The notes below the pieces were generated by a model. It was given only the letters and a program-made list of their open reading frames with translations, ran no database searches and had not been told where the DNA came from. Positions 37,480 to 60,566 of a DNA stretch of 64,000 nucleotides are shown in pieces (the stretch's first letter is position 1; each line of letters begins with the position of its first letter). This DNA comes from Candidatus Omnitrophota bacterium. GTDB taxonomy: Bacteria > Omnitrophota > Gorgyraeia > JAHJTE01. Where the stretch lies: the NCBI GenBank assembly GCA_018830005.1, contig JAHJTE010000001.1, forward strand, positions 193,332 to 257,331, in the 5' to 3' direction. Position numbers and translations under genes: made by a program.

Positions 37480-38007
37480 ATGCTTAAGTTAGATGAAGTT
37501 TATGTAAAAGAGCAAGATTCCTGGGTAAGCAGACATATTTTGGATGAGGTAGTGATTATGCCTTTATGTAGAAGCGCTGATGACATGCAGTATATCTATT
37601 CAATTTCCAATGAGACTGGTTCAAGGATTTGGCAGCTTCTGGATGGTGATAATTCGACCTGGGATATCCAGGAGACAATAAAGTCAGAGTATCAAGGTCA
37701 GTTCGAGGTAATAGAGCGAGAAGTGTTGGGATTCTTGAAAGATCTTTCTGAGGCAGGGCTTATTCGCAAGGCCAGAATTAAACCGAAAACCGAAAACCTA
37801 AACCCGAAACCCGAGATAAAAAAGAAACCCTACAAGAGCCCAGAGATTGCCAAGGTAAAGTTACAGCCTGAGCAGGCAGTCTTAAGTTGCTGTACAATCA
37901 ACGGCGGTTATAAAGGAACCACTGTAAATAGATGCGCTGGTCTATGTCCAATTGATGCTTCATGCAACGCATTATCGGATCAATCCCGTGATGCGCTTGC
38001 CACTTAA
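37480..38007 (+). CDS. PqqD/RRE-like domain protein with Lys/Pro-rich linker and Cys-rich C-terminal tail
   Basis: N-terminal PqqD-like 'ISNETGSRIWQLLDGDNSTWDIQETI…EVLGFLKDLSEAGLI'; tail 'AVLSCCTINGGYKGTTVNRCAGLCPIDASCNAL' (5 Cys in 30 aa); SD 'AAAGGGAGGTG'. Confidence 0.65.
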   Translation: MLKLDEVYVKEQDSWVSRHILDEVVIMPLCRSADDMQYIYSISNETGSRIWQLLDGDNSTWDIQETIKSEYQGQFEVIEREVLGFLKDLSEAGLIRKARIKPKTENLNPKPEIKKKPYKSPEIAKVKLQPEQAVLSCCTINGGYKGTTVNRCAGLCPIDASCNALSDQSRDALAT

Positions 38008-38175: not shown

Positions 38176-39285
38176 ATGATAAACCAAGGTGATTACGATA
38201 AATTTCAAGCAAGATTAATCAAGAAGGCAAGGAACAAGGCCTTTCCTCTTAAGGCAATGTTTGAACTTACCTATAGGTGTAACCTTAAATGCCGACACTG
38301 CTATGTGTGCGATGGCGAGAATAGAAAAGAATTACAAACCCAGGAGGTCTTTTCTATTCTTGATCAGTTGGCAGAGGCAGGATGTCTAAATTTAGGTTTT
38401 ACAGGAGGAGAGCCTTTCCTGCGAAAGGATATATTTGATATTTTAAGATATGCTAAGAATAAGGGATTTAATACCGTACTTTTGACCAATGCGACTTTGA
38501 TTGAAGAAGCTGATGCAGACAGGTTAAAAGAGTTGGGTCTAAATAAGATTGATGTATCTTTTCATACTAGGAAGCAAGAGGTTTTTGATTGGTTTACTCA
38601 AAGGCCTGGTACATATAAAAGAGTCTCAGAGGCAGTCAGGCTCTTAAGAAAAAAAGGCATTGATGTTTTTCTTAAAACGACTGCAATGACTATAAATAAG
38701 GATGAGATTTTAGCCTTGAGGCATCTTGCAGTAGAGAAATTTGGCGCACATTTTCGCTGGAGTTCGATAATAACTCCAGACCTAGAGGCTAATAAGGAGA
38801 ATTTGAGGTTTCGTTTAACAGCAGAGGATGTTAATTGTCTAGAGAAGCAGATTAGAGATGATAGTGTAATAGAATTTGAAAAACTAGACACCTTGGAAAA
38901 AATAAATAGAAAGTCAGCGAAAAGGCAAAGGCCTATTAGAAAGATAAATCATAACCAGCTGTTTCATTGTGGTGCAGGCAAAACAGAGGTTGTAATAGAC
39001 CCCTATGGCCAGATGAGATTATGTCTGGATATACCATTCCCAAAATACGATATTTTAAAGAGTAATTTCTCCCAAAGCTGGAAGATGTTAACTGATTTTG
39101 TAAGAGATACAGCTGGCGGGTCTAGTTATCAATGTCAAGACTGTGAACTTATTCAATATTGTAAGTCTTGTCCTGCGTATGCATGGCTTGAGTGCGGTGA
39201 CATCAGTGCTTGCCCGCCATATTTTAGAGAGCTGGCGCGTCTGGCAAAGATGGAATCCGAAACAGAGGATATAAAGATTGCATGA
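38176..39285 (+). CDS. Radical SAM/SPASM-domain enzyme #2
   Basis: 'CNLKCRHC'; 'FTGGEP'; SPASM-like 'CGAGKTEVVIDPYGQMRLC…CQDCELIQYCKSCP'. Confidence 0.8.
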   Translation: MINQGDYDKFQARLIKKARNKAFPLKAMFELTYRCNLKCRHCYVCDGENRKELQTQEVFSILDQLAEAGCLNLGFTGGEPFLRKDIFDILRYAKNKGFNTVLLTNATLIEEADADRLKELGLNKIDVSFHTRKQEVFDWFTQRPGTYKRVSEAVRLLRKKGIDVFLKTTAMTINKDEILALRHLAVEKFGAHFRWSSIITPDLEANKENLRFRLTAEDVNCLEKQIRDDSVIEFEKLDTLEKINRKSAKRQRPIRKINHNQLFHCGAGKTEVVIDPYGQMRLCLDIPFPKYDILKSNFSQSWKMLTDFVRDTAGGSSYQCQDCELIQYCKSCPAYAWLECGDISACPPYFRELARLAKMESETEDIKIA

Positions 39286-40193
39286 GGAAAGAACTTAGAT
39301 TAGAAATTGCCGGGATTGGATTTTTATTTCGTTATAATAATTGTCAGATTAAAGAAGGCAGATATAGTCCAGCATACCTTGAGGATTTTATTAAACCGGG
39401 TAATAATAGTGATTTCATTATTGATCTTGACGTGGGATCTCTTCCTGCAATTCCTAGGGGGAGGCTGTTGTTTGAATCAAAGGAGAATTGGCGTTCCTTT
39501 GCGCATAACGGAAGTTTCCTAATCGAGACTTACTATGGTAAGTCAGAGATAACCAGGGTTTGTGTAATAAATAAAGATCTAAGTAAGGCAAAGGTATATA
39601 TCTCACCCTGGACAGACGAATTTGATAAAAAGAAAAGACTTAAAAACAATCCTCCCAAGAACTGGTCACTGGAGACATTTTTTTCTGTTTTAGGCCAGCT
39701 TATTTTAATCAACCTATTACATAAATATCAGGGGCTTCTTTTGCATGCCTGTGGTGTAGTTGTTGATGGTGCGGGATTAGTTTTTCCCGGGATATCAGGC
39801 GCAGGCAAGACGACTCTGACAAGGTTATGGCAGAAGAGGGGTGGCCTTGGCCTATTAAGCGATGATCGGGTAATTATTCGAAAGATAAATAAAGAATATT
39901 TTGTTTCTGGAAGCCCTTGGCCAGGCGAGGCCAGGATTGCCTCTGGTAAATCAGCGCCGCTTAGTAAAATCCTGTTTCTTTCCAAGGCCAATCAAAATAA
40001 ACTCAAAGCCCTAGGAAAAAGAGAAAGTCTATATCTGCTTATGAGGCAGTGTTTTCCTCCTATATGGGATAGACAGGCGATTGATTTTTTTCTTAAGTTT
40101 TGCGCAAGTCTAGTCGAAGATGTCCCCTGTTTTTCATTTGGTTTTGTTCCGGATGAAAGCGCGCTAGATTTTATTTTAAAAAACCACTCATGA
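39282..40193 (+). CDS. HPr kinase C-terminal-domain-like (HprK-related) P-loop protein #1
   Basis: 'LLLHACGVVVDGAGLVFPGISGAGKTTL' and 'LLSDDRVII' resemble HprK/P catalytic core; ATGA overlap with upstream rSAM. Confidence 0.65.
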   Translation: MRKELRLEIAGIGFLFRYNNCQIKEGRYSPAYLEDFIKPGNNSDFIIDLDVGSLPAIPRGRLLFESKENWRSFAHNGSFLIETYYGKSEITRVCVINKDLSKAKVYISPWTDEFDKKKRLKNNPPKNWSLETFFSVLGQLILINLLHKYQGLLLHACGVVVDGAGLVFPGISGAGKTTLTRLWQKRGGLGLLSDDRVIIRKINKEYFVSGSPWPGEARIASGKSAPLSKILFLSKANQNKLKALGKRESLYLLMRQCFPPIWDRQAIDFFLKFCASLVEDVPCFSFGFVPDESALDFILKNHS

Positions 40194-45113: not shown

Positions 45114-45155
45114 CAAAACGAAACAGGACTATTGGGGGAGATTAAAGGGGGTGTA

Positions 45156-45290
45156 ATGATGAGAAAGGATTCCAAAAAAATTTCAAAGACAAGAAATGCT
45201 AAGGACAAATATGAGAAGCCAAAACTTTTCAAATACAGAATGGTAGATGTTGCCAGTGCTTTAGTAGCTGGACAGATAGAACCTTTATGA
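45156..45290 (+). CDS. Unannotated small ORF, 44 aa: MMRKDSKKISKTRNAKDKYEKPKLFKYRMVDVASALVAGQIEPL; candidate precursor peptide
   Basis: Not in the six-frame track (<60 aa). Strong SD 'AAAGGGGG' at 45145-45152; tandem ATGs at 45156 and 45159; lies in the 284-nt gap between rSAM #5 and the stand-alone PqqD gene; Lys-rich N-terminal half, hydrophobic small-residue C-terminal half. Confidence 0.45.
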   Translation: MMRKDSKKISKTRNAKDKYEKPKLFKYRMVDVASALVAGQIEPL

Positions 45291-45408
45291 ATAGAGCAGA
45301 TGTTTGCTTGATATCCTATGGCTTGAATTAGTTTTTCTAATGGGTAGATTATATATTTACTGAAGGAAAAATCTATCTGTTAACTAATAAATAAACTTGG
45401 AGGTAGAT

Positions 45409-45699
45409 ATGGCCTTAAGGGAAGGATGCAATCGTTTTAAAATCCAGAAGGATAAAATTGCCCACCGCTTAATTAATAATGAAGTGGTAATTTTGCATTT
45501 AGAGCGTGGTCTTTATTTCAGTCTTAATAAAACCGCTACTTTTATCTGGAAACTTATAGAGCAAGGCAGGGATTTAGGCCAGATGTCAGAGGCGTTCGCT
45601 AAAAGGTTTGAATGCAAAGAGGCAGAGGCAATAAAGGATGTCAATGTCTTAATAGGCGATTTAGAAAAAGAAGGACTCATAGATAAGATTAAGAAATAA
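45409..45699 (+). CDS. Stand-alone PqqD-family (RRE) protein; start at ATG 45409 with GGAGG at 45399-45403 (track ORF starts at an upstream TTG)
   Basis: 96 aa; 'INNEVVILHLERGLYFSLNKTATFIWKLIEQGRDLGQM…KDVNVLIGDLEKEGLI' typical PqqD. Confidence 0.75.
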   Translation: MALREGCNRFKIQKDKIAHRLINNEVVILHLERGLYFSLNKTATFIWKLIEQGRDLGQMSEAFAKRFECKEAEAIKDVNVLIGDLEKEGLIDKIKK

Positions 45700-48143: not shown

Positions 48144-49325
48144 ATGAATATAACAATTTTTCCTCATGCCTATTTGCCTAGCGTAGGGGGCGTAGAAGAG
48201 GTAGTCAGAAATCTAGCCAGAGAATTTAAGGCAAAAGGCCATCGTGTAGGACTAATAGTATTTGTTCCACTTAGAAGATTCAGGGCACGTGAGATTATTG
48301 AAGGAATAGAAGTTAGAAGATTCTATGTTCCCTTTGTAATATTGCCCTATAGAGTGAGCTGGCGAGCTTTTCTTGATGTAGTTGAAATGCTTGTTTGTTT
48401 GCCTCTTGCCCTGGTTAGAATAGCGCGCATACTCAAAGAAAATAATAGCCAAATAATACACATACATTATATTGGCGTAAATGCATTTTATATTTGGTTG
48501 CTTTCCTATTTTCTCTCCTTAAAATACATCGTAAGTTTGCACGGCTTTAATTTACAAGTAATACCTTTCCTGAAAGGCGCAAGCAGAGCTGTTCTTAATT
48601 TTGTTTTTAAGTCTATATTGCAGCGCGCCAGTTTTGTTACTGCCTGTTCTGAGTATCTACTTGATGATGCAAAAGAAAGAGTCCCCCAGATAAGAAATAA
48701 GTCTTGTGTTATCCCCAATGGCATAGATTTGGATGAGTTTAAGCATAACGGCCGCAGTTTAATAGATTATCCCTACATCCTTTGCCTGGGAAGACTGCAT
48801 GCACCCTTTAAAGGTTTTGATATTGCCCTGCTTGCACTCAAGGATATACTAGATTCAGGCCTTGATATAAATCTGGTTCTAGCCGGAGACGGGCCAGCCC
48901 GCACTTCTTATGAGAGATTGATAAGATTATTAAAGATAGAGAAAAATGTGCATTTATTTGGTTTGGCAAATAGAAAAGATGCAGTAAATTTAATCAGAAA
49001 CTGCCAATTCTTTGTGATGCCTTCACGCGTTGAACCTCTAGGTATTGTAAACTTAGAGGCCATGGCCTGTTCTAAGGCAGTCATTGCTTCCAGAGTAGGC
49101 GGTATACCAGAGGTAGTTGAGCATGGCCTAACCGGATTATTAGTTGAGTCATGCAGCGAGAAAGCACTGGCTGCAGCGATAAAGCGACTTATGGAAGATA
49201 AGAATTTAAGAATCAGACTTGGCAGAAACGGCAGGCTTAAGGCTGAGCAACGTGGATTTTCTTGGGAGTTTATAGCCGATAAACATCTGGAGATATCAAA
49301 AGGATTTTTGAATTATGAAGATTGA
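48144..49325 (+). CDS. GT4-family glycosyltransferase (paralog b; divergent N-terminal half, near-identical C-terminal half to paralog a)
   Basis: 'YLPSVGGVEEVV'; C-terminal half identical at protein level over 'FKSILQRASFVTACSEYLL…GIDLDEFKHNGRSLIDYPYILCLGRLHAPFKGFDIALLALKDILDSGLDINLVLAGDGP'. Confidence 0.8.
   Translation: MNITIFPHAYLPSVGGVEEVVRNLAREFKAKGHRVGLIVFVPLRRFRAREIIEGIEVRRFYVPFVILPYRVSWRAFLDVVEMLVCLPLALVRIARILKENNSQIIHIHYIGVNAFYIWLLSYFLSLKYIVSLHGFNLQVIPFLKGASRAVLNFVFKSILQRASFVTACSEYLLDDAKERVPQIRNKSCVIPNGIDLDEFKHNGRSLIDYPYILCLGRLHAPFKGFDIALLALKDILDSGLDINLVLAGDGPARTSYERLIRLLKIEKNVHLFGLANRKDAVNLIRNCQFFVMPSRVEPLGIVNLEAMACSKAVIASRVGGIPEVVEHGLTGLLVESCSEKALAAAIKRLMEDKNLRIRLGRNGRLKAEQRGFSWEFIADKHLEISKGFLNYED
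48599..49124 (+). repeat. Copy B of duplicated GT4 segments (see 46268-46793)
   Basis: Same as copy A; tandem duplication unit of 2331 bp comprising GT4 + rSAM. Confidence 0.85.
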
Positions 49326-50427
49326 CCCCTTTGATTATACAATAGGCTTAAAGATAAAAAATATAGAGGCGGCCTTAAGGGATAGGGAATTTCAAAATAG
49401 CACCTGTGAATCTTTCCCTGCATCTTTAACCATTGCAGATACTACAAGATGTAATCTAGACTGTATAATGTGTCATCACCATTTGGCCAAGACATATACA
49501 AAGTCTGCAAGCAATATTAATATGGATTTTAATCTATTTTCGAAGATTGCCAAAGAGACATTTCCCCATATTAACCTTGTTAGTTTAAGTGTATCTGGAG
49601 AACCTTTCATTAATCCAAATTTTTCTAAAGAGTTAGAGTTAATCGCTTTCCACAAGGTTAAGTTAGGTATTATTACTAACGCCACACTCATGCCAAAAGG
49701 CGATAGCCTAAGGAGACTTGTTAATAATCTCTCTAGTATAATTGTTTCTATTGATGCTGCTAGCAAGAAAACTTACGAGGCTATAAGAAAAGGCGCTAGA
49801 TTCCAACAGGTTATCGATAACGTCAAGCGGCTTAATAGGGCAAGACTAAAATTCAGTAAAAGTTTTAGACCCAAGCTTATCTTCTGGCTAGTTTTGATGA
49901 GGAAAAATATTGAAGAGTTATCAGAATATGTGCGCTTAGCTCATGCTCTTAAGGCAGACGGGATAGGACTGGTCCACATGTCAATACATCATGAGAAATT
50001 AAAAAAAGAATCATTGATTTACCACAAGCGATTGACGAATCGCTGCTTAAAGGCAGCAAGAAAGCTAATAGATAGTTTTGGCATTGAAGTCTATAATATT
50101 GCACCTTTGTTTTCTTTTGGTAGGACACCCATTAAAAAGAGCTATTATACTTTAAACAAGAGACCTTGTAAATTTCCTTGGCGGGAGGCATTTATTGAAG
50201 TAAATGGTGATGTTTATCCTTGTTGTGCTCCGGACAAAAGTGGTTTATTGATGGGTAATGTTAGAGAGCAGACGTTTAGACAGATTTGGAATGGCAGGCG
50301 CTATCGATTATTGCGAACCAGCTTTAAAAACGGCAATCTATTTGCTCCTTGCAAGAACTGTTACCAAAGATTAAAAGATTATACCTCAGATATCAGCGGT
50401 ATCTATTTCCCGCCGCCTATTGCATGA
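49315..50427 (+). CDS. Radical SAM/SPASM-domain enzyme #7 (paralog of #6, ~55-60% aa identity)
   Basis: Same 'TTRCNLDCIMC' block; 'VSGEPF'; 'CKFPWREAFIEVNGDVYPCCAP…CKNCYQRL'. Confidence 0.75.
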   Translation: MKIDPFDYTIGLKIKNIEAALRDREFQNSTCESFPASLTIADTTRCNLDCIMCHHHLAKTYTKSASNINMDFNLFSKIAKETFPHINLVSLSVSGEPFINPNFSKELELIAFHKVKLGIITNATLMPKGDSLRRLVNNLSSIIVSIDAASKKTYEAIRKGARFQQVIDNVKRLNRARLKFSKSFRPKLIFWLVLMRKNIEELSEYVRLAHALKADGIGLVHMSIHHEKLKKESLIYHKRLTNRCLKAARKLIDSFGIEVYNIAPLFSFGRTPIKKSYYTLNKRPCKFPWREAFIEVNGDVYPCCAPDKSGLLMGNVREQTFRQIWNGRRYRLLRTSFKNGNLFAPCKNCYQRLKDYTSDISGIYFPPPIA

Positions 50428-52205
50428 AAATGTCAGAACAAATCCACAAAGAACAAGTCGCTAAAGACCTCCTTTATGAATCTATAAAAGATGGCAGGAA
50501 GCGATCTCTAAAGGTAATAGGTAGTTGTATGCATCCAGTGATACAGCCAGGGGATGAAGTATTTTTTGGAAAAAGAGAGAAGTTTAGATTCGGTGATTTA
50601 GTGGTTTACAGGCAAAGTCAGGGCTTTATTGTCCATAGGTTTATTAGAAAGGCAAAGGTTAATAACAAACTAGTTTTTATATTAAAGGCAGATAATCCCT
50701 CTGAACTTGAGGAATTCATCGGGCAGGATGAGATTATCGGCGTAGTTACTAAACTGAGACGTAACGGCAGGATTTTAATTATTGATACATTTGCAGGCAG
50801 ACTTACGAGTTTATTTTATTTCTGTCTGGCTAATTTAAATCTTGCTCAAAGTAGGCTAAAACAAAGGCATGAGCTCTTAGCTATTAAGGCACTGCCTGCT
50901 AGATTAAAGAGTATAATTTCTACTAAAGTCTTCAACCTAAAAGACGTTTTTGCCTTTGGGATAGTAGAGACTGAGCAAGATTCATTTTTGAAAGAAAGGA
51001 AGACATTAAAACTAGTCGCTAAAGATTCGCTTTGTAAGGATGAGGAAACGCAATTAATAGATTTATTGAAAAATGGCCTTGATTGGCAATACGTCCTAGA
51101 GAGAATTAAATGGAATTTTATCATACCTTTTTATATTCAAAAGCTAAAGAGTTTCGGCTGGGAGGAAGATTTATATAGAAGGAATCACTGTTTAGATTTA
51201 GAGAATATCCATAGACTTCAGCTTATACAGGATACAAAAACTAGGCTTATTCTAGACGGGGTATTAGGGGAATTTAATAAACATGGTATTAAGGTGCTCG
51301 TACTTAAAGGAGCTCATTTAGGAATAGAGGTTTATGAGGACAGTTCCCAGCGCTGGATGGGAGATATTGATTTAATCTTGAGAATAGAAGATTGGTCTAA
51401 GGCATGCAAGATCTTAAATGATTTGGGTTTTGTGCTTGATTGGTTTTGTAAAGACTATAATATTTGGAGCATAAGATATCTAGATAATCATATTGACTTT
51501 CGCAAGCAAGGTATAAAATTAGAATTAAAAACAGGCATTTGGGCCATAGATTTTCCTTATTTCAATTATAGTCTTTGGCAAGATGCCAGATTAAAGAGGA
51601 TAGGAAAAGCAGATATATATTTTCCTTCCTATGAGGATACTCTTCTGATAGCCTGCGTTAATCTCGTTCGCCATAATTTCTCAGGATTAATCTGGTTCCT
51701 GGACACAAAAAAGATCGTTGATAAATTTAAAGACTCATTAGATTGGGATGTATTTTTAGATAAAGTCTCTAGATACGATTTAGGAACCGCAGTTTATTAC
51801 GGACTTTATTTAACTGATAAGTTATTTTCTTTAACATTACCCCCTGATTTGTTAGCTAAATTTAAGCCGCCTAGATTGGTGGATAAATTATTCAATTTCT
51901 TCTGGGATAGGAAAGCGATATTACTTGAAAAGGAAGGCCTTGTATTTAAGAACAAGGTGCCTTTTGAGTGCGCTTTTGTTTTATTCTGCGGCAAGTTTAG
52001 TTTTAGGCCTGAAAAATTTGTAAGATATGTAGTATATTTATTAAAGCTGATTTTTCCTCCCCAAGACTTTATCAGAGATAAATACAAGATTAAAGTCAAT
52101 CTAGTTAGCCTATCAAGATGTTATTTAGTTAGATTGTTTAGTTTTTTATCTACGTTGTTTAGTTTGCTCTTTGACTTATTTGCGGATAAAGACAGGCGAG
52201 CCTAA
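50424..52205 (+). CDS. Two-domain protein: N-terminal S24/S26 (LexA/signal-peptidase-like) Ser-Lys peptidase domain + C-terminal nucleotidyltransferase-family domain (PF14907-like); start at ATG 50424 (ATGA overlap with rSAM #7 stop)
   Basis: 'VIGSCMHPVIQPGDEVFF…GDLVVYRQSQGFIVHRFIRK' resembles the S26/S24 Ser…Lys fold; C-term 'LKGAHLGIEVYEDSSQRWMGDIDLILRIEDW' typical of the uncharacterised NTase family. Confidence 0.55.
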   Translation: MKMSEQIHKEQVAKDLLYESIKDGRKRSLKVIGSCMHPVIQPGDEVFFGKREKFRFGDLVVYRQSQGFIVHRFIRKAKVNNKLVFILKADNPSELEEFIGQDEIIGVVTKLRRNGRILIIDTFAGRLTSLFYFCLANLNLAQSRLKQRHELLAIKALPARLKSIISTKVFNLKDVFAFGIVETEQDSFLKERKTLKLVAKDSLCKDEETQLIDLLKNGLDWQYVLERIKWNFIIPFYIQKLKSFGWEEDLYRRNHCLDLENIHRLQLIQDTKTRLILDGVLGEFNKHGIKVLVLKGAHLGIEVYEDSSQRWMGDIDLILRIEDWSKACKILNDLGFVLDWFCKDYNIWSIRYLDNHIDFRKQGIKLELKTGIWAIDFPYFNYSLWQDARLKRIGKADIYFPSYEDTLLIACVNLVRHNFSGLIWFLDTKKIVDKFKDSLDWDVFLDKVSRYDLGTAVYYGLYLTDKLFSLTLPPDLLAKFKPPRLVDKLFNFFWDRKAILLEKEGLVFKNKVPFECAFVLFCGKFSFRPEKFVRYVVYLLKLIFPPQDFIRDKYKIKVNLVSLSRCYLVRLFSFLSTLFSLLFDLFADKDRRA

Positions 52206-52206: not shown

Positions 52207-53127
52207 TTATAGCAATTTGCCTAGAAGCCTGGGGATTTCTCTAATCTGATCTAGGCTATAAGAAAGGGCATAGGATCTTGCCTGGTAGGCGAGTCGACAG
52301 AGATTCTGTATTTGGTGTTGGCGGATAATTATGTTTTTTTCCTCAGGAAGACTATTTACCTTATCATAGGCTAAAATAGTAAAACTTTCTTTTGTCTTCA
52401 ACTTTTTTAATTCAGGCGGCCGCAGGGGATTGTCAGATTGACAAATGAATAGTATTACGCCTAAGCATGCGCGTTCAGCCGGCTTAGCCGGGAAATACTC
52501 TTGTGCATAAAAAGAGGTAGCAATTTTTCTTCCTTCATTTAATGTAAGGAATTTTAGAGATTGTTTATCTAATTTCATTTTAAGAGGAAAGGAGAGTATT
52601 CTATCTTCGTGCAGGATAGCAAATTCATCTGAAAGAAAATTATAACCTTTATCTATAAGGGCTGCGGCTAAGGTGCTTTTGCCCATACCGGGACCGCCAC
52701 AGATAAGCAGGGCCTTATTCTTTTTAGATACTACTGCCGAATGTATTAAGGATATATTGTGATATGCCAATATTCGCCGTAAGGGCGAGATTATTGTTAA
52801 GTGCAGCAGGTTTTCTATTGTTAAACTGGAGGGGTAGAGCAGCTTGGCGTTGATTTTATTCTCTTTGGGATTGGCCTCAAGCGATATATTTTTTATCCAA
52901 CAATCAAGAGAAAAGTTCTCATCTTTTAGGCCAGCAACGTCAGAACGCCCATTTTTAAACGCCTTATTTTTAACAGAGAGATTTAGATCAATTTCTATAT
53001 ATTTGTTATAACTGCGGAATTTTGGAAATTTCAGTTCTTCGCAAAAGGCGTTAAACAGAGATTGGCAGTCAGACTTAAAATTTAATTTGATGTTATGTAG
53101 ATATATATTTTTTGAATAGGTTTGCAT
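52207..53127 (-). CDS. HprK-related P-loop kinase-like protein #2
   Basis: 'IHSAVVSKKNKALLICGGPGMGKSTLAAALIDKGYNFLSDEFAIL' parallels HprK/P C-domain; 306 aa. Confidence 0.6.
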   Translation of the reverse strand: MQTYSKNIYLHNIKLNFKSDCQSLFNAFCEELKFPKFRSYNKYIEIDLNLSVKNKAFKNGRSDVAGLKDENFSLDCWIKNISLEANPKENKINAKLLYPSSLTIENLLHLTIISPLRRILAYHNISLIHSAVVSKKNKALLICGGPGMGKSTLAAALIDKGYNFLSDEFAILHEDRILSFPLKMKLDKQSLKFLTLNEGRKIATSFYAQEYFPAKPAERACLGVILFICQSDNPLRPPELKKLKTKESFTILAYDKVNSLPEEKNIIIRQHQIQNLCRLAYQARSYALSYSLDQIREIPRLLGKLL

Positions 53128-53434
53128 AGCTTAAATTGGTAATTAATTTTAACTTTTTTAATTGCCGCAAGAGTGTTAAGTAATCAGCCCCTGCCTTTTT
53201 GTAGCTTGTTTTGTGTTTTTTCATTAGGCATTTTATAATTTTTTCCGGAGATTTTTTTAATAGAAGGCCTTCTAGTATATCAAGGGAGGATTTTGTAGTA
53301 AAATTAAGTGATTTTAGGATGTCGGCGAAAGAATATTTGCTTTCATCTATGACTACAAAGACAAATTCATTGCATAGTTTTGCCCAGACAATTTTTTCAT
53401 GTTTTAGCTCGTATCTCTTTTTTAGCTCGTCCAT
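53093..53434 (-). CDS. PqqD-family (RRE) protein
   Basis: 113 aa; 'IVWAKLCNEFVFVVIDESKYSFADILKSLNFTTKSSLDILEGLLLK…' PqqD-like; overlaps downstream kinase gene by 35 nt. Confidence 0.6.
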   Translation of the reverse strand: MDELKKRYELKHEKIVWAKLCNEFVFVVIDESKYSFADILKSLNFTTKSSLDILEGLLLKKSPEKIIKCLMKKHKTSYKKAGADYLTLLRQLKKLKLITNLSYANLFKKYIST

Positions 53435-53513: not shown

Positions 53514-55286
53514 ATGTTTGATTCAGGCATAAACCAAGACAGGCTTAAATTAAAAGATGTAAAAGAAGGATTTAGGTTTTTTCTTCGTTTCAATAAATAT
53601 ATATTACGTTACTGGAAGATACAGCTGCCCATTCTGATTATAGGAAATGCAACAATGATGCTGGGTCTTGTTAATCCTTATATCGGGAAATTGATATTGG
53701 ATAAGGGCATCCTCGCCAGAAATTTTAATGTATTTATTCTCTTTACCATTATCTCTGTAACGATCTTTTTCATTTCTATTCTTTCAAACATTGCCTATGA
53801 TTATTTGAAAAATTATGCACTGGTTAATATTTCTATTGATCTTAATCGGGATGTATTTAGGAGGCTAAAAAAATATTCCTTGAGCCAATTGCAGATGAGC
53901 TCAACCGGTGTGCGTATCTTTCGTATAGTCAATGATATCGGCAATGCCTCCGAGGTTATCAATGTTACACTTGTACACATTATAAATTCAATTATTAAGA
54001 TGATTTTTATAACCGCTATCATAATATTTATTAACCCTCTTTTTTTGTTGATTATTATTGTTTATCAGTTTTTGGTTATTATCAGGATGAGATTTTTTGT
54101 TAAGTCTTTTGAGGAATTGAAAAAGATGAAGTTAAAAGCCGTTGAGAGGCTTTTTCATAGTCTTAATAATTTCTTCTCACATCTTTATCTTAGTAAGACC
54201 TTCGGCACCATGGGTAGGGAGATAGGAAGGTATATGCATAGCTTCTTTGAGCATATAAGGTTGCACATGAGAGGCGTACGTTTGGGGGCGATTGCTGGAT
54301 TTATATCCAGCATTTCTGATAAATTCTTCTTTGGGGCCTTAGCTTTTTACGGAGCATATCTTGTGATAAAGGGCGAGATAACCTTGGGCACAATGGGTGC
54401 GATGCTTGCCTATATTAGTCAGGGAGTAGGGGCATATACAGAGCTTACTAGTTTGTGCGAAAAACTGGTGTTTAACAAGATTTCTTTAGAGAGGGTAGCA
54501 AAGGTATTGGATGAACCACTTCCTGAAAATCTTCCTCAGAGAGGTGGAGTTAGGCCGCAAGATTTAAGGAGGATTGAATTTAGGCAGGTGAGTTTTGGAT
54601 ATCAAGCCAATAAAGAAATAATAAAAGGTTTAAATTTTAGTATCGAGGCTGGGTCTCATATTGGCCTGGTTGGCCATTCTGGTTGCGGCAAGACAACGCT
54701 GCTTAGCCTTATTTTAGGGCTTTATCCTGTTGAGAACGGTAAGATATTATTGGCTGATAGCCAGCTAGAGGCAATAGATTCTGCCTATCTTCTTTACAAT
54801 ATTGGCATAGTTTTGCAGGAGCCGTTTCTTTTTGATGACACTATCGCTTATAATATTTCCTATGCCTTAAATGAGGCTAGAGATAAAGATATTATTGAAG
54901 CAGCGAGGCTTTCTGATATCTATAGTTTCGTTAATTCTCTGCCTAAAAAATTTGATACAACTGTGGGAGAGAATGCCTACAGGCTTTCTCAAGGCCAAAA
55001 GCAGCGGATTGCTATCGCGCGTGCATTAATAAAAAGGCCGCAAATTTTAATTTTAGATGAAGCGATGTCTTCTCTTGATTCAGAAACAGAAAGCAAGATA
55101 ATCGCTAATATAAAAAACAAATTTTCCGATTCTACGATTATCTTGGTATCGCATAGATTGTCAGCTGTAAAGACAATGGATACAATTTATTATTTTAAAG
55201 GGCCGCATATTATGCACATAGGCTCGCATGATAAATTACTTGATGAGCTCTCTGATTATAGAGAATTCTTTAGAGAACAGATTTAA
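53514..55286 (+). CDS. ABC transporter, fused permease/ATPase exporter (no C39 peptidase domain)
   Basis: 6-TM N-domain; Walker A 'GHSGCGKTTL', signature 'LSQGQKQRIAIARAL', Walker B 'ILILDEA'. Confidence 0.85.
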   Translation: MFDSGINQDRLKLKDVKEGFRFFLRFNKYILRYWKIQLPILIIGNATMMLGLVNPYIGKLILDKGILARNFNVFILFTIISVTIFFISILSNIAYDYLKNYALVNISIDLNRDVFRRLKKYSLSQLQMSSTGVRIFRIVNDIGNASEVINVTLVHIINSIIKMIFITAIIIFINPLFLLIIIVYQFLVIIRMRFFVKSFEELKKMKLKAVERLFHSLNNFFSHLYLSKTFGTMGREIGRYMHSFFEHIRLHMRGVRLGAIAGFISSISDKFFFGALAFYGAYLVIKGEITLGTMGAMLAYISQGVGAYTELTSLCEKLVFNKISLERVAKVLDEPLPENLPQRGGVRPQDLRRIEFRQVSFGYQANKEIIKGLNFSIEAGSHIGLVGHSGCGKTTLLSLILGLYPVENGKILLADSQLEAIDSAYLLYNIGIVLQEPFLFDDTIAYNISYALNEARDKDIIEAARLSDIYSFVNSLPKKFDTTVGENAYRLSQGQKQRIAIARALIKRPQILILDEAMSSLDSETESKIIANIKNKFSDSTIILVSHRLSAVKTMDTIYYFKGPHIMHIGSHDKLLDELSDYREFFREQI

Positions 55287-55304: not shown

Positions 55305-56102
55305 ATGAAAATACGCTTATACATCGGATTATTACTTTTGAAAATTACCGAAACGTTCAATCTCATGGGCAGGATATTTAAAAATATTTTACTAGTAGTT
55401 CTCCTGCCTCAGGATCTAAGCAGCCTTAATAAATTAGCTTATAATAATAAGGGTAATCTAAATGCGCTCTCAAGTTTGGCAACGCGAGGGCTAAATGAAG
55501 GAGAGAAGGAATTAATTTCTAAATATTGTCTTAAGCCGGGTAAGTTTCTAGTCTTAGGCTGCGGTGCAGGCAGGGAAACTTATGCATTGGCAAAGATGGG
55601 TTTTGTTGTTACGGGTATTGATTTCGTAGAGACCTTGTTAGGAAAGGCAAGAGCTGTAGCAGAAGAAGAACAGTTGAGGATAGAATACATTAATAAAGAT
55701 ATTCTTTTATGGGCCGAGGAAGAGAGAAAAGAAAAATACGATTATATCCTTGTTTCAAATAATGTCTATCTGCAGATTCCTTCAAAAAAAATACGGATTA
55801 ATTTTCTTAATAGGGCGCTTAATAAATTATCTGATGATGGCCTTTTTATTGTAATTAATAACTGCATATCTGATCTTAAATACTCTAAAATTCAGTTTAA
55901 ATTAAAAAGGCTCTTGGCAAGAATCATGTTCGCAAATGTCGGAATAGAAGCAGGCGACTGGATACCAATTCGTCAATTCTTTCACCGGCCGCAAAATAAG
56001 AATGAATTTTTAACTGAATTTCAAGATAGCGAAGCCTTAATCTATGAGGTTAGAGAAGATAAGAATCTTATTTCGGTTTTGCTAAAACATTCAAATGGAT
56101 AA
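55305..56102 (+). CDS. Class I SAM-dependent methyltransferase
   Basis: Motif I 'FLVLGCGAGRETYAL', motif II 'YDYILVSNNV'. Confidence 0.7.
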   Translation: MKIRLYIGLLLLKITETFNLMGRIFKNILLVVLLPQDLSSLNKLAYNNKGNLNALSSLATRGLNEGEKELISKYCLKPGKFLVLGCGAGRETYALAKMGFVVTGIDFVETLLGKARAVAEEEQLRIEYINKDILLWAEEERKEKYDYILVSNNVYLQIPSKKIRINFLNRALNKLSDDGLFIVINNCISDLKYSKIQFKLKRLLARIMFANVGIEAGDWIPIRQFFHRPQNKNEFLTEFQDSEALIYEVREDKNLISVLLKHSNG

Positions 56103-58347
56103 GAAGTTAAAAGAAGACATTGAAGTTAATGAGAGAGGGCTAGAGGTCCCTTGTCAGGATAGCAAGCTTTCACAACTATGCTGTGAGTATTCTGATTTAC
56201 TGCCCTGTTGTAATGCCCTTATCCCAAGGGGAAAACGTTTTAGGGACCGGGCTAAAATATTATGGGGTAAGGTGAGTTTTCTAGACCTTTTTGAACTAAA
56301 GAAGGAACTTCTAAAAACAGATTATTTTAAATTTAAAACAACAAGTTGGTGCATGTTTCCAGTCTTAAAAAAAGGCGATACGTTAAAGATTGAATCTTGT
56401 AGTTTGAATGATTTAAAAATAGGTGAAATACCAGTTTATCGTAGAAATAATAGATTATATTCACATCGAATTGTGGATAAGCATATTCTAGAAGGAAAGG
56501 AGCGGATAATAACAAGACCAGATACAGCTAAGGTCAGGAAGGGCCTCTTGCAAGAAGAGCTAGAAGAGGAGGATTTATTAGGCAAAGTAAGGGAAGTAGA
56601 AAGAGACAAAAAGAGATTTCCTCTAGAAAAAAGGGAAGCTAATTTTTGGGAGAAATTCTTATACACCAGACATAAACTCTCCTTGGCTTTATTGAAATTA
56701 TTGTCTCGTGTTTCTATGAAAACTTTAACATGCATTCAATCTCTTTGGATTTATAGATGGTTAGGAAAAAAGCTAATTAAAAGATTGGAACCCAATATAG
56801 ATTTCCAACTCGCCACACCCTCAAGGCACAAGTTAGAAATATATGAATATACACCATTAGAAAAAAGAGATAATTTTCGACCAAGAGAATATAAAAATTT
56901 TCATATTATTATGAAATCAAAAGATACGCCTATAGGATGCATTACATTCTTGAACAGAGATAAGAATTGTCCATATACAGGTTTTTGGTTAGCTGAGCTG
57001 TGGATCAGGCTTAGATATAGAGGGCTGGGCCTGGAGTCGTTTTTAGTCAACAGAGCGCAAGATTTTTTAAGAGAACGCGACCTAGAGCACATTTCTTATC
57101 CAAGGCCTCCTGTTGTGCTAAAGCGTTCTTTTTTGAGGGCTCCGCTTTATTTTAACAGCCAGGAGTTATTGATTGTTTTATCCAAGGATAAAACAGATGA
57201 AGATCTGACTAAGAGGGCACTTAGCCTTATCAGGGCCGGAATTGATTGGGATGTATTTTACAAGTTAGTTATAGCCAGTGGCAAACCCGCGGCTATAATG
57301 AAACATATAAAGTTTTTAAGTGGTCTTGAGGCGGTTGGTCATTCTGCAATTGACAGATTAAAGGGAGCCTTCTTTGATACGATTGACTCTACTACACGAA
57401 ATCACAGGCAGTTATTGGATATACTCAAGGAGTTCTCAAAAGCAAAAATTAGCGTTATTCCTTTAAAAGGTACATATTTATCCCAAAGACTCTACGGAGA
57501 TATCTCACTGCGAGGAAAGAATCTAGATATTGATTTGTTGATAAAAGAGCAGGATATAGAGAGGGCAACGGCTTTATTGAAAGGATTAGGCTATAAAGAA
57601 AGACCAGAAGAAGAAATTAGCATCTGGCGTTGGCAGAAGACATTCTCTAAAGAAGGTTTTGCCTTTCTAGAGTTACAGTGGGATATTACAATGATGCTTA
57701 GAGACAGCCAGAGGATAGAAGGGTTATGGCAAAGCGCTGATAATGTCAAGATTCATTTAGAAGGAGTAGACTTGAATATTTGTCAATGGGACAATGAAGC
57801 GCTCCTTCTTTATCTTTGCGTAACTTTAATTAATAGTAGTGGTTATAGAGATTTAAGATATTTCTTTGATATTTTTCAATTGCTAGAGAACACAAGCACA
57901 TCTTTTGACTGGGGTGCTTTTATTAAAAAGGCTAGAAGATACAAGATTAATAATTCTGTATTTGCCAGCTTGCTAAAAGCAAATGAAATCCTGAATGCAA
58001 AAGTTCCCAAGCCTGTGTTAGAGGAGTTAAAGCCGTCTTTCTTAAAAGGAATATTAATACGTATTTTCTTAAGCCGGAGTGTGATATTTACTGATAATCT
58101 AAGAAGAAGGTTTATGGATAATTTTTTAAGTTATATCTTTTTTGAGCTGCTTGAGGCAAATTCAGCTAGAGATTACCTAAGGATCGTAAAAAGAGTAATG
58201 TTTCCGCCTCGGGAGCTTCTAGAGATTCGCTTTGATAATCCAGCTTCGGCAAGAATTAGTATTTCCTCAAATTGGCAATATTCTCTCTGCGTCCTAAAGA
58301 GGCTTTGTAAGTCTTTCAGTCTCATAGGGAGAATTCTTGTAAGATAA
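56095..58347 (+). CDS. Three-domain protein: Cys-rich N-terminal segment + S24/S26-like peptidase + GNAT-like acetyltransferase + nucleotidyltransferase-family (PF14907-like) domain
   Basis: 'PCQDSKLSQLCCEYSDLLPCCNAL'; 'TTSWCMFPVLKKGDTLKI…YSHRIVDK' (S26-like); 'RLRYRGLGLESFLVNRA' (GNAT motif A-like); C-terminal 'GKNLDIDLLIKEQD' NTase-like; 8-nt overlap with MTase gene. Confidence 0.5.
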   Translation: MDKKLKEDIEVNERGLEVPCQDSKLSQLCCEYSDLLPCCNALIPRGKRFRDRAKILWGKVSFLDLFELKKELLKTDYFKFKTTSWCMFPVLKKGDTLKIESCSLNDLKIGEIPVYRRNNRLYSHRIVDKHILEGKERIITRPDTAKVRKGLLQEELEEEDLLGKVREVERDKKRFPLEKREANFWEKFLYTRHKLSLALLKLLSRVSMKTLTCIQSLWIYRWLGKKLIKRLEPNIDFQLATPSRHKLEIYEYTPLEKRDNFRPREYKNFHIIMKSKDTPIGCITFLNRDKNCPYTGFWLAELWIRLRYRGLGLESFLVNRAQDFLRERDLEHISYPRPPVVLKRSFLRAPLYFNSQELLIVLSKDKTDEDLTKRALSLIRAGIDWDVFYKLVIASGKPAAIMKHIKFLSGLEAVGHSAIDRLKGAFFDTIDSTTRNHRQLLDILKEFSKAKISVIPLKGTYLSQRLYGDISLRGKNLDIDLLIKEQDIERATALLKGLGYKERPEEEISIWRWQKTFSKEGFAFLELQWDITMMLRDSQRIEGLWQSADNVKIHLEGVDLNICQWDNEALLLYLCVTLINSSGYRDLRYFFDIFQLLENTSTSFDWGAFIKKARRYKINNSVFASLLKANEILNAKVPKPVLEELKPSFLKGILIRIFLSRSVIFTDNLRRRFMDNFLSYIFFELLEANSARDYLRIVKRVMFPPRELLEIRFDNPASARISISSNWQYSLCVLKRLCKSFSLIGRILVR

Positions 58348-58500: not shown

Positions 58501-58549
58501 AGTGTAAGTATATTCAGGCCATTGAATATAAGTGAGGCTAGGAGCGCTA

Positions 58550-59395: not shown

Positions 59396-59427
59396 AACAT
59401 TAGCTAACCCAGGATAAGACGAAGCTT

Positions 59428-60564: not shown

Positions 60565-60566
60565 TT

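Follow-up and report, generated by a model that had tools for sequence, protein, structure and literature searches.

In the lasso peptides a homologue of HPr kinase, PsmK, phosphorylates the C-terminal Ser of the precursor, and the uncharacterised nucleotidyltransferase PsmN, whose DxD is essential and whose activity in vitro is unproven, is required for the addition of a hexose on that phosphate; fusions of a nucleotidyltransferase to the lasso leader protease B2 have also been described in Firmicutes (PMC8498205, PMC6993621). With these precedents for the tailoring of a C-terminal Ser and for the fusion, the view of an earlier note on the present locus that nucleotidylation would be unconventional for RiPPs is not supported. 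To our knowledge, the SynChlorMet (SCM) cassette as described contains neither a peptidase-nucleotidyltransferase nor an identified precursor.

The window analysed here is a stretch of 64,000 nucleotides from a Candidatus Omnitrophota bacterium; positions are those of the window, and features lie on the forward strand unless the reverse strand is given. Analyses of the open reading frames together with Pfam, NCBIfam and Foldseek searches confirmed that it carries two proteins, as claimed before, with a clan SF peptidase at the N-terminus and a PF14907 nucleotidyltransferase at the C-terminus. ORF A (50424..52205, 593 aa) consists of a SEC11-like peptidase domain, a long linker helix, the nucleotidyltransferase and a conserved helical C-terminal extension, and ORF B (56095..58347, 750 aa) of a Cys-rich head, a SEC11-like peptidase domain, a truncated GNAT and the nucleotidyltransferase. 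Judged from their sequences the two are paralogs, the nucleotidyltransferases being 25% identical (E 6e-17) and the peptidase cores 27% identical (E 1e-4); the pLDDT of the AlphaFold (AF2) models was 88.4 for ORF A and 78.6 for ORF B. The ATG of ORF A shares bases with the TGA of a radical SAM/SPASM gene (ATGA at 50424-50427), and the ATG of ORF B lies 8 nt within the 3' end of a methyltransferase gene (stop codon 56100-56102); both overlaps are as previously described and give ground for the claimed translational coupling. ORF A had 21 full-length homologs, and every named member of the fusion family belongs to Omnitrophota. The peptidase-nucleotidyltransferase also occurs split, reordered, or joined to a methyltransferase, a GNAT or a polysaccharide-export protein.

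The peptidase domain covers aa 1-122 of ORF A (50424..50789), where it was defined by a profile match to Ser56, His96-Arg97 and Asp116 of SEC11A, and aa 65-175 of ORF B (56287..56619), where it was defined by TIGR02228, alignments and Foldseek. The Pfam model Peptidase_S24 matched ORF A (26.6 bits, cut-off 23.3, aa 11-108) and gave no match on ORF B, and the NCBIfam model TIGR02228 for archaeal-type signal peptidase I matched both N-termini (38 bits, E 1.4e-9 for ORF A; 30.3 bits, E 3.2e-7 for ORF B) with scores lower than its cut-off of 51.85. A profile built from 21 N-terminal domains matched human SEC11A (E 1.5e-12) and SEC11C (E 4.2e-12), SEC11 being the top sequence-profile match in PDB, and was many orders of magnitude weaker against LexA (E 0.007). 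Foldseek searches with the ORF A domain model returned LexA, UmuD, SEC11 and SipA, the LexA C-domains being closest, and those with the ORF B model returned SEC11C (7p2q), SipA and LexA. Its S26B sequence pattern assigns the domain to the ER/archaeal SEC11/SipW type. It has no membrane anchor at the N-terminus; this argues against a secretory signal peptidase, and the domain should be cytoplasmic or at most tail-anchored.

In SEC11A the catalytic set is Ser56-His96-Asp122, and Asp116 is salt-bridged to Arg97 (bioRxiv 10.1101/2020.11.11.378711). Alignment revealed that the nucleophile, the residue preceding Met in the x-M-x-P box, corresponds to a putative catalytic Cys35 in ORF A (50526-50528, TGT) and to Cys86 in ORF B (56350-56352, TGC). 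The conserved columns His71-Arg72 (50634-50639) and Asp90 (50691-50693) of ORF A align with His96-Arg97 and Asp116 of SEC11A, and their counterparts in ORF B are His124-Arg125 (56464-56469) and Asp143 (56521-56523); Glu96 of ORF A (50709-50711) is a further putative catalytic residue, and the codons of all these ORF A residues were checked. Among 99 aligned domains the nucleophile column held Ser in 74 and Cys in 20, His and Arg were found in all 99 and Asp in 98, and a second acidic residue at +6 from the box-E Asp was present in 81. The neighbour-joining tree indicated at least eight independent switches between Ser and Cys, the only two residues accepted there, and such switching is how a working nucleophile behaves. 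The Ser-Lys dyad proposed in the earlier note was rejected, because no Lys is conserved and invariant His-Arg and Asp are found instead: the marked Ser and Lys are present and are not the conserved residues, the Ser lying off the aligned nucleophile position and Lys76 being kept in just 40 of the 99 domains. The unusual part that remains is the protease fold employed and the alternation of Ser and Cys.

These data bear on three other readings of the N-terminal domain. That it acts as a LexA/UmuD-like self-cleaving switch, releasing or activating the nucleotidyltransferase, would agree with the Pfam assignment to Peptidase_S24 and with the rank of the LexA C-domains in Foldseek, but is extremely unlikely given the far better profile match to SEC11, a general base that is His and not the Lys of S24, an N-terminal helix without a conserved Ala-Gly-type self-cleavage site, and the occurrence of split and reversed-order versions. 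We also regard as very doubtful that the domain is a non-proteolytic peptide-binding module which docks the precursor for the nucleotidyltransferase, as SipA of Streptococcus pyogenes would suggest; this homologue of signal peptidases turned up in the structural comparison, the family-model scores are low and the module of locus L020 does without the domain, but binding alone would hardly call for exactly a Ser/Cys-only nucleophile position and the His, Arg and Asp seen in 98-99 of 99 domains. The S26-family protein TraF cyclises the conjugative pilin, and by this parallel the domain might be a transpeptidase or cyclase in which the Ser/Cys acyl-enzyme is resolved by an amine, either the peptide N-terminus or another acceptor. 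The repeated change from Ser to Cys (20 of 94, at least eight switches), which would give a thioester intermediate favouring transfer reactions, and the full conservation of the catalytic centre are consistent with it, but Ser is retained in most members and no acceptor or cyclisation signature was identified, and we consider it quite improbable.

The PF14907 core was found at aa 219-468 of ORF A (51078..51827; NTP_transf_5, 137.8 bits, E 5.9e-40), with Lys295-Gly296 and an Asp314-x-Asp316 metal site in invariant columns (51363-51371), and at aa 383-634 of ORF B (57241..57996; 134 bits), with Lys458-Gly459 and Asp478-x-Asp480. The K-G...D-x-D motif was at least 90% conserved among 73 fusion proteins. 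Foldseek placed the C-domain of ORF A nearest to LnuA (4fo1) and ANT(2'')-Ia (5kqj, 5cfu, 5cfs and 4xje), and that of ORF B likewise. These antibiotic O-nucleotidyltransferases are the nearest solved folds (TM-score on target 0.6-0.7) and have the Pol-beta-type metal site in common with the C-domain, but sequence identity is only 13-18%, PF14907 proteins have about 250 extra helical residues, and nothing points to an antibiotic substrate for them. PF14907 genes of Bacteroidales had an HprK-like neighbour at 7 of 8 loci.

ORF B carries two further segments which had been noticed before. The Cys-rich head (aa 1-63, 56095..56283) is present, with Cys20, 29, 30, 38 and 39 and a pattern PC.D..L..LC.EY.D..PCC common to ORF B, P0023 and P0024, and is modelled as disordered, without a confident fold (pLDDT 31-44). 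The GNAT-like insert (aa 235-333, 56797..57093) is likewise present and makes up about half a GNAT fold only. It carries the acetyl-CoA loop motif R-Y-R-G-L-G-L, matches Acetyltransf_1 of Pfam (26.2 bits, cut-off 20.7) over aa 261-333 and profile positions 24-96 of 116, and runs collinear with the complete GNAT domain in P0100; Foldseek matched it to RimI (7n1l) and Hpa2 over 76-100 columns of targets of 140-160 residues, and the model is without beta5-alpha4-beta6. The domain families named at first (clan SF peptidase, PF14907 and GNAT-like insert) all proved right.

Directly upstream of ORF A lies the radical SAM/SPASM enzyme (49315..50427), which is kept in this position at A-type genes. 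Downstream, on the reverse strand, are an HPr-kinase-related, ScmC-like P-loop protein (52207..53127) and, paired with it, a small PqqD-like protein (53093..53434; PqqD 15 bits, sub-threshold, with orthologs also weak). The former, a putative peptide kinase, matched TIGR04352 HprK_rel_A (61 bits), far under the cut-off of 200 bits, and Hpr_kinase_C (22 bits), under the cut-off of 33.3 bits; its orthologs match PF27840 ScmC, and L001-L007 and L019 keep the gene in this place. These are followed by an ABC exporter (53514..55286; ABC_membrane and ABC_tran of Pfam) and by the SAM-dependent methyltransferase (55305..56102) that overlaps the start of ORF B. The exporter has no C39 peptidase domain, its alignments to ABC models that include a peptidase beginning at model positions 127-194. 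None of the cluster ORFs that were scanned carried a further peptidase domain. Fusions of Rosetta-stone type join the peptidase-nucleotidyltransferase to a methyltransferase (P0036, P0042, P0048 and P0162) and to a GNAT. Further upstream are a PqqD-family peptide chaperone, or RiPP recognition element (45397..45699; PqqD 63.7 bits), and, within a radical SAM cassette, a second HPr-kinase-related, ScmC-like P-loop protein (39282..40193), whose orthologs adjoin peptidase-nucleotidyltransferase genes in L016 and L018.

The gene order radical SAM, A, HprK-like, PqqD-like, ABC, B was kept in L001-L007 and L019, and L018 showed a minimal module of PqqD, radical SAM, precursor, ScmC-like, peptidase-nucleotidyltransferase and ABC genes. 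Searches starting from the precursors returned to the same module, including L021 with separate nucleotidyltransferase and S24-like genes. Intact radical SAM genes were present at all loci except L016. In L020, reached in the same way, the module is complete, nucleotidyltransferase included, save for the peptidase domain, and proteolysis by this domain is therefore not obligatory for the system.

Just upstream of the PqqD gene, a candidate precursor of 52 aa (45132..45290) carries the leader motif KYEKPxLxKY, which recurs in small ORFs of like placement in L003, L004 and L007/L019; it had no NCBIfam match, and the C-terminal residue of this precursor, the nearest to ORF A, is not Ser. An unannotated family of Cys-rich precursors gave 136 matches; its leader of 24 residues hardly varies, and 115 of 120 members end in Ser and 4 of 120 in Thr. 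Its member in the window (37480..38007) is fused to PqqD (44.7 bits) and ends in Thr; its tail, ...PEIAKVKLQPEQAVLSCC...DALAT, aligns with the stand-alone precursors L018:8912-9082 and L003:1141-1362. Before the invariant Cys, V was found at -3 in 117 of 119 members and a small residue at -1 in 86 of 119, a sequence pattern that fits the signal-peptidase rule; the proposed site is weakly supported, as just 72% of the members have the small residue at -1. The conserved synteny and these precursors back the processing or tailoring role in a peptide-modification system that had been suggested.

The module adjoins Wza/Wzc polysaccharide-export genes: in the window and in the nine loci with enough flank, Poly_export, a GNVR/Wzc-type kinase and often Wzy_C and a flippase lie beside it, and one representative joins the peptidase-nucleotidyltransferase to a Poly_export/SLBB protein. 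This constant association and the fusion leave room for a polysaccharide-related target. The module could then serve an exopolysaccharide: a phospho- or nucleotide-activated group would be put on the glycan or on a lipid-linked intermediate by the nucleotidyltransferase, sugars would be modified by the methyltransferase and GNAT, and the peptidase would process a protein of the export machinery; ANT(2'') and LnuA do use small sugar-like molecules. We regard this reading as unlikely, since the module includes PqqD chaperones, the precursor family and, outside L016, intact radical SAM genes, for none of which a part in decorating glycans is known, since a kinase and nucleotidyltransferase pair finds its nearest functional precedent in peptide tailoring, and since the single fused representative could be an artefact of gene calling or assembly.

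From what is observed, namely the domain identities, the conservation of catalytic-type residues, the gene neighbourhood and the precursors with their features, we infer every catalytic step and substrate of ORF A and ORF B. There is, in our estimate, about an even chance that both are cytoplasmic bifunctional leader peptidases and tailoring enzymes of a ribosomal-peptide modification system within a polysaccharide-export locus. PqqD-like chaperones would present the precursors, and the N-domain, a SEC11/SipW-type (S26B-like) peptidase with a Cys/Ser-His(-acidic) centre (Cys35-His71 in A, Cys86-His124 in B), would remove the conserved leader, plausibly cutting after V-L-[S/A/T] ahead of the first invariant Cys in the Cys-rich precursors; Asp90 and Asp143 would be structural partners of the adjacent invariant Arg. 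By analogy with PsmK/PsmN, the adjacent HPr-kinase-like protein may phosphorylate a Ser or Thr residue, the nearly invariant Ser at the C-terminus being the likeliest target. The C-domain, predicted to be an active Pol-beta-type nucleotidyltransferase from its Lys-Gly...Asp-x-Asp motif, might then attach a nucleotide-activated group, which in the case of PsmN is a hexose. Further tailoring would fall to the methyltransferase and the partial GNAT of ORF B, and export of the product to the ABC protein.

Compared with known systems, the peptidase domain has the fold of the ER/archaeal-type signal peptidase I (MEROPS S26B: SEC11A/C, yeast Sec11, archaeal SPase and Bacillus SipW) and the boxes x-M-x-P (nucleophile just ahead of Met), G-D, H-R and the box-E D with an acidic residue at +6. 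Unlike S26B it is without an N-terminal signal-anchor, scores under the TIGR02228 cut-off, has Cys as nucleophile in both window proteins, as do 20 of 94 relatives, and is fused to a nucleotidyltransferase; S26B cuts a Sec signal peptide, whereas the presumed substrate here is a RiPP-type leader. SodX, the nickel superoxide dismutase maturation protease (S26, TIGR02754), is also a small soluble S26-type peptidase that cuts an N-terminal leader off a cytoplasmic substrate, but its context and domain architecture are unrelated to those of ORF A, on which TIGR02754 gave a weak match (17.9 bits, E 0.0032; cut-off 63.25).

The SCM cassette (ScmC, the PqqD-like ScmD and the radical SAM/SPASM proteins ScmE and ScmF) resembles the window in clustering a ScmC-like P-loop protein, a PqqD-like protein and several PqqE-like radical SAM enzymes, but all matches to SCM equivalogs were far under the cut-offs (24-89 bits versus 100-400). 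As here, the PsmK/PsmN and PadeK lasso systems (pseudomycoidin and paeninodin) bring together an HPr-kinase-related protein, a PqqD-type chaperone and an ABC exporter; precursors with C-terminal Ser and a fusion of leader protease and nucleotidyltransferase occur both there and in modules of the window type, and PsmN and the window nucleotidyltransferases are ANT(2'')-like with DxD. Neither the lasso cyclase (Asn-synthase-like) nor the transglutaminase-like B2 protease was found in the window cluster; unlike in the lasso systems, the protease fold is S26B-like and the precursors are Cys-rich and stand alongside radical SAM enzymes and GT4 glycosyltransferases. The C-terminal Ser of these Cys-rich precursors echoes that of the lasso peptides, which is phosphorylated and then hexosylated via PsmN.

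Sequence analyses indicated that ORF A (50424-52205, plus strand) and ORF B (56095-58347, plus strand) are both intact and encode distant paralogs of 593 aa and 750 aa, respectively. The nucleotidyltransferase (NTase) profile PF14907 (NTP_transf_5) matched both proteins at full length, with 137.8 bits in A (profile positions 3-248 of 249) and 134 bits in B (3-249 of 249) against a gathering threshold of 31.2 bits, and the family assignment proposed in the earlier note therefore stands. At the N-terminus, Pfam detected Peptidase_S24 (PF00717) in A with 26.6 bits, above the gathering threshold of 23.3, and gave no match to this profile at E 0.1 or better in B, so that this part of the expected profile set was recovered for one paralog only. 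The NCBIfam model of archaeal-type signal peptidase I, TIGR02228, matched both N-termini (A, 38 bits, E 1.4e-9; B, 30.3 bits, E 3.2e-7), in each case below its cut-off of 51.85 bits. Since these matches are carried by intact ORFs, the peptidase-like plus NTase architecture described earlier is real and far beyond chance. The predicted overlaps with the upstream genes were also confirmed: the stop codon of a radical SAM (rSAM)/SPASM gene overlaps the ATG of A in an ATGA at 50424-50427, and the ATG of B lies 8 nt inside the end of a methyltransferase gene. Proteins of the A/B type are named 'nucleotidyltransferase family protein' or 'GNAT family N-acetyltransferase' in public databases.

The AlphaFold model of A, computed from a 73-sequence alignment, was confident (pLDDT 88.4), and Foldseek comparison of its C-terminal domain with the PDB returned LnuA, ANT(2'')-Ia, TM1012 and TglT. 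Both A and B showed the Pol-beta-type fold with a Gly-containing loop and a D-x-D metal site. The motif Lys-Gly...Asp-x-Asp was located at K295-G296 and D314-x-D316 in A and at K458-G459 and D478-x-D480 in B, and was conserved at at least 90% in 73 fusion proteins; judged by these residues, the PF14907 domain of both proteins looks active as a nucleotidyltransferase. In A the linker helix is lengthened by about 34 residues (A residues 147-180, window 50862-50963). This insertion was modelled with low confidence and is shared with the 96%-identical relative P0001 alone.

In the model of B (pLDDT 78.6), a head (aa 1-63) is followed by the peptidase domain (65-175), which leads through two long helices to a GNAT-like region (235-327) and then the NTase. 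The GNAT-like domain claimed earlier for this paralog was retained as a motif and a profile match: the insert contains GNAT motif A as R-Y-R-G-L-G-L (R/Q-x-x-G-x-G/A) and matched Acetyltransf_1 (PF00583) with 26.2 bits against a cut-off of 20.7, over profile positions 24-96 of 116 only. A complete GNAT fold was rejected. Residues 235-327 form a beta-sheet and one helix that matched the GNATs RimI and Hpa2 in Foldseek, the aligned part of the GNAT-type matches being only 76-100 columns against target lengths of 140-160 residues, and the beta5-alpha4-beta6 half is missing from the model. B is collinear with the homologous protein P0100, which has a full GNAT (61 bits), minus the second half of that domain; the insert is therefore a genuine but truncated GNAT-like element of doubtful activity. 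The head of B (window 56095-56283) is rich in Cys (Cys20, 29, 30, 38, 39), with a pattern, PC.D..L..LC.EY.D..PCC, that recurs in P0023 and P0024, relatives which contain a GNAT. The head is predicted to be disordered (pLDDT 31-44) and might serve as a metal site or as an appendage of peptide character.

For the peptidase domain, 21 full-length homologs of A and 8 of B were gathered, together with second copies from related loci, and 21 N-terminal domains spanning both lineages were aligned. The only invariant columns were Met36, Pro38, His71, Arg72, Asp90 and Gly106 (A numbering), and Ser or Cys preceded the Met in all 21. As a single-sequence query, A gave no match against PDB sequences. The profile of the N-terminal domain, searched against solved structures, gave as best matches human SEC11A, SEC11C and a second SEC11A construct (E 1.5e-12 to 6e-12), while bacterial signal peptidase I and LexA scored only E 0.002-0.1. 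In the profile alignment the Ser/Cys column corresponds to SEC11A Ser56, His71-Arg72 to His96-Arg97 and Asp90 to Asp116. The catalytic triad assigned in the SEC11A structure is Ser56-His96-Asp122, with Asp116 as the salt-bridge partner of Arg97 (bioRxiv 10.1101/2020.11.11.378711).

Counts over 99 peptidase domain instances gave Ser at position 35 in 74 and Cys in 20, five sequences apparently beginning at the Met through mis-called starts. His71 and Arg72 were each present in 99/99 and Asp90 in 98/99, and an acidic residue at +6 (position 96; Glu96 in A) in 81/99 (D71/E10); this residue has the spacing of SEC11A Asp122, yet the HMM alignment places Asp122 in an insertion. The fusion representatives P0054, P0074, P0094 and P0121 begin exactly at the conserved Met, and their start codons are probably mis-called, hiding the Ser/Cys residue. 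In the window the nucleophile position is Cys35 (TGT) in A and Cys86 (TGC) in B, where the equivalents of His71-Arg72 are His124-Arg125. The Cys is kept in the 96-98% identical counterparts of A and B from an independent MAG, and the Ser/Cys character switches at least 8 times on a neighbour-joining tree. The Ser-Lys dyad advanced in the earlier note did not survive these comparisons: the nucleophile column is Cys in both proteins, the proposed catalytic Lys76 occurs in only 40/99 domains, and the base position is held by the invariant His, as in S26B, and not by the Lys of S26A/S24. By its profile matches, the peptidase domain of A and B is thus SEC11-like rather than LexA-like, with Cys in the window copies. 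Since only the two classical protease nucleophiles are tolerated beside the invariant His-Arg/Asp, the Cys/Ser-His/Arg/Asp set argues for a working catalytic centre.

Both models showed the clan SF fold (S24/S26, the mainly-beta LexA/signal-peptidase core) in Foldseek, their N-terminal domains matching the LexA C-domain, UmuD', lambda repressor, SEC11A/C, SipA and SpsB. A non-catalytic docking role as in SipA and a self-cleavage role as in LexA are both disfavoured by the residue conservation and the SEC11-type profile match. A hydrophobic N-terminal anchor is absent from A and B, and the model of A has a polar N-terminal helix; the domain is therefore not a conventional secretory signal peptidase. 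A possible C-terminal membrane helix was seen in A only (aa 568-586, Kyte-Doolittle 1.77), B being without any.

A profile search of 1.84 billion representatives returned 42,657 matches at E <= 0.001 and 728 at E <= 1e-30, most of them being PF14907 alone. The peptidase domain was present in 94 of the 174 proteins collected, which included the architectures methyltransferase-peptidase-NTase, peptidase-methyltransferase-NTase, peptidase-GNAT-NTase, NTase-peptidase in reversed order, peptidase-NTase-Poly_export and NTase tandems; in one locus (L021) an S24-like peptidase is encoded next to the NTase by a gene of its own. The methyltransferase whose gene overlaps B is thus a fusion partner elsewhere. 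All fusion members that carry a source name, cluster look-ups included, are from Candidatus Omnitrophota. A contig scan with one alignment profile yielded only 3 Omnitrophota loci and 8 NTase-only loci of Bacteroidales, so the taxonomic breadth of the fusion is poorly defined.

The two paralogs belong to a module in which A is followed by an HPr-kinase homologue (52207-53127) and a PqqD-like gene (53093-53434), both on the minus strand, an ABC exporter (53514-55286) and B. The order rSAM/SPASM, A, HPr-kinase-like, PqqD-like, ABC exporter, B, with the same two genes on the minus strand, was kept in seven loci (L001-L005, L007 and L019), and was covered in part in L006, which is too short to reach B. 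A smaller module of a more distant member (L018) consists of PqqD, rSAM, a 56-aa ORF, a ScmC-like gene, peptidase-NTase and an ABC-2 transporter, and L016 carries a module of this type without an intact rSAM gene, the rSAM being broken into 37-aa and 293-aa pieces. The HPr-kinase-like proteins are very divergent, with intact P-loops and weak matches to HprK_rel_A/B, ScmC and Hpr_kinase_C. In Bacteroidales loci from rumen MAGs (L008-L015; match positions 8001-8600 and about 9300 or 13200), an HprK-like P-loop gene lies 1-5 kb from a PF14907-only gene in 7/8 cases, so that the pairing of kinase and NTase reaches far outside Omnitrophota. Pfam and NCBIfam showed no C39 peptidase domain in the ABC exporter, and leader removal by the exporter was rejected on this ground; no further peptidase domain turned up in the cluster ORFs scanned at 33.4-58.3 kb, a set in which paralogs represent GT4 45777-46982 and rSAM 46986-48122.

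These last two genes form the first copy of a tandemly duplicated GT4 plus rSAM/SPASM pair, the second being 48144-49325 and 49315-50427. The two GT4 proteins are identical over long stretches, e.g. QRASFVTACSEYLL.DAKERVPQIRNKSCVIPNGIDLDEFKHNGRSLIDYPYILCLGRLHAPFKGFDIALLALKDILDSGLDINLVLAGDGP, which suggests recent duplication or gene conversion, and in L003 the GT4 and the rSAM/SPASM enzyme are fused in a single 775-aa protein. At its C-terminus the GT4 at 42399-44009 is extended by about 150 residues, with the end ...RIASVIDGNRSLEDINSNFIHRGFKKRRDSLKRFYKHLAEEGVVSFLSN; by eye the extension resembles a PqqD/RRE-type peptide-binding domain, which would suggest a glycosyltransferase directed at peptides. 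Among NCBIfam models, this GT4 best matched TIGR04157 (104 bits, below cut-off), a model associated with a Bacteroidetes peptide system. The upstream genes at 18-31 kb (PFOR, RmuC, MscS and others) were set aside as housekeeping genes outside the system.

Directly 3' of the module, 58532-63541 is a conserved polysaccharide export block of an AAA_22 ATPase, an HD-GYP-type protein, a Wza-like Poly_export/SLBB protein and a GNVR/Wzc-type chain-length regulator-kinase. AAA_22 ATPase, HD-GYP, Poly_export and GNVR/Wzc-type kinase genes were the usual downstream genes wherever the contig was long enough; in L002 and L005 the GNVR gene directly follows the module, in L004 further rSAM, ScmC-like and ABC genes follow B, and the L018 module is flanked by Poly_export and Wzc/Wzy genes. 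The AAA_22 ATPase matched the XrtA/PEP-CTERM-associated ATPase model weakly (230 bits, cut-off 324.5), and no exosortase was seen in the examined parts of the window. One 889-aa gene call in L016 (10001-12670, P0093) joins peptidase, PF14907 and a Wza-like Poly_export/SLBB domain, and either the fusion is genuine and ties the module to polysaccharide export, or neighbouring genes were merged in calling. A polysaccharide-directed role of the module is kept alive by its constant linkage to Wza/Wzc/Wzy genes and by one peptidase-NTase fusion to Poly_export, but leaves the PqqD chaperones and the precursors unexplained.

Two families of candidate precursor peptides were recognised. The first, a large and unannotated Cys-rich family with 136 database matches, has an almost invariant leader (approximately M-x-x-K-P-K-F-K-P-E-I-T-R-V-K-L-N-P-E-Q-A-V-L-x-C-x-C-Y) and a core of some 55 hypervariable residues that include 3-6 Cys. 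Its members include window 37480-38007 (tail from about 37800), L018:8912-9082, L003:1141-1362 and proteins P0175-P0294, and none of three members scanned had an NCBIfam match. Of 120 members, 115 terminate in Ser and 4 in Thr; the window copy, fused in frame to the C-terminus of a PqqD at 37480-38007 with no internal Met, ends in Thr. When two of these precursors encoded on long contigs were taken as starting points, the neighbouring genes again comprised PqqD, rSAMs, ScmC-like, ABC exporter and PF14907. Ahead of the first invariant Cys lies V-L-[S/A/T], with Val in 117/119 members and the small residue in 86/119, and a cut after it would fit the -3/-1 rule of signal peptidases, as an argument of compatibility only. 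The second family has the leader KYEKPxLxKY, which appears to resemble the YxxPxL leader motif of PqqD-dependent RiPPs, and a short variable tail without terminal Ser (window 45132-45290; L003:5947-6096; L004:4394-4534; L019:347-481). The ORF always lies directly upstream of a PqqD gene (window 45397-45699) and GT4/rSAM-SPASM pairs, a position kept in L007/L019 as in L003 and L004.

Since the parts of the module match the tailoring set of lasso peptides except for the cyclase and the B2 leader protease, leader removal with kinase/NTase tailoring is proposed. The SEC11-like domain would be the leader peptidase of the precursors, a role suggested by gene context and residue conservation; the HPr-kinase-like protein would phosphorylate the C-terminal Ser/Thr, which the PF14907 domain would then decorate, and the methyltransferase and the GNAT remnant of B would serve as extra tailoring modules. 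All catalytic steps are inferred. The precursor-led loci L021, with its separate S24-like peptidase, and L020 both adjoin Poly_export; L020 lacks a peptidase domain, which counts against the proposal, as do the absence of a terminal Ser from the precursor nearest A, the strong divergence of the kinase-like proteins and the incomplete biochemistry of PsmN. A Cys/Ser-His centre might also act as a transpeptidase or cyclase. A bolder reading, which we consider very improbable as a whole, unites peptide and polysaccharide in one product, a ribosomal-peptide-anchored exopolysaccharide: the near-invariant C-terminal Ser of an rSAM-modified peptide would be phosphorylated, the PF14907 enzyme would add the first sugar to that phosphate by analogy with PsmN/pseudomycoidin, the many GT4s and Wzy/Wzx/Wza/Wzc would extend and export the peptide-primed phosphoglycan, and the Cys/Ser-His SEC11-like domain would be the leader peptidase or a transpeptidase coupling peptide and glycan. 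If true, this would be a bacterial surface polymer of a kind not described so far.

The domain families are already known and kinase/NTase tailoring of RiPPs has precedent. In the literature searched we found no description of a cytoplasmic SEC11-type peptidase fused to PF14907, of its Ser/Cys alternation, of a precursor family with near-invariant C-terminal Ser or of the systematic embedding of such a module in polysaccharide-export loci, and nothing relevant on PF14907/NTP_transf_5 or HPr-rel-A/TIGR04352, on HPr kinase with PEP-CTERM and exopolysaccharide, on S24/S26 leader peptidases in RiPPs or on Omnitrophota RiPPs. Should the leader-peptidase proposal hold, a new fold, a cytoplasmic SEC11-type relative with natural Ser/Cys interchange at the nucleophile, would join the short list of RiPP leader peptidases, and kinase plus NTase tailoring of a C-terminal Ser would reach beyond lasso peptides. 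For the 42,657 PF14907 matches, partnership with HPr-kinase-like peptide kinases would become a general role open to testing, and attention would turn to a precursor family, large and unannotated, and to a conserved module for peptide modification linked with polysaccharide export. Nucleophile exchange in clan SF could be studied directly on the Ser-to-Cys series that nature provides in a Ser-His-Asp signal-peptidase scaffold. Omnitrophota are, to our knowledge, a phylum without cultured representatives, and their surface chemistry may matter for a host-attached lifestyle.

Compared with the S26B signal peptidases (SEC11/SipW/archaeal), A and B share the box D His-Arg, have Cys in place of the box B Ser and lack the N-terminal anchor of these enzymes, which present a trans-side catalytic domain to Sec signal peptides. 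The SynChlorMet system (ScmC/D/E/F, TIGR04248-TIGR04251) gave best scores of 20-89 bits against cut-offs of 100-400, and PF27840 ScmC matches on orthologs were weak or faint only; true membership was rejected on these scores. [quoted passage not shown] Neither an Asn-synthase-like lasso cyclase nor B2 was found among the cluster ORFs scanned at 33.4-58.3 kb, and an Asn_synthase gene adjoins one distant relative only (L017), so that a lasso-peptide cluster was rejected. As in the lasso pade/psm type, the HPr-kinase homologue, NTase, PqqD (B1) and ABC exporter occur together here and the precursors share the terminal Ser, Thr in the window copy, while the protease fused to the NTase is of another fold.
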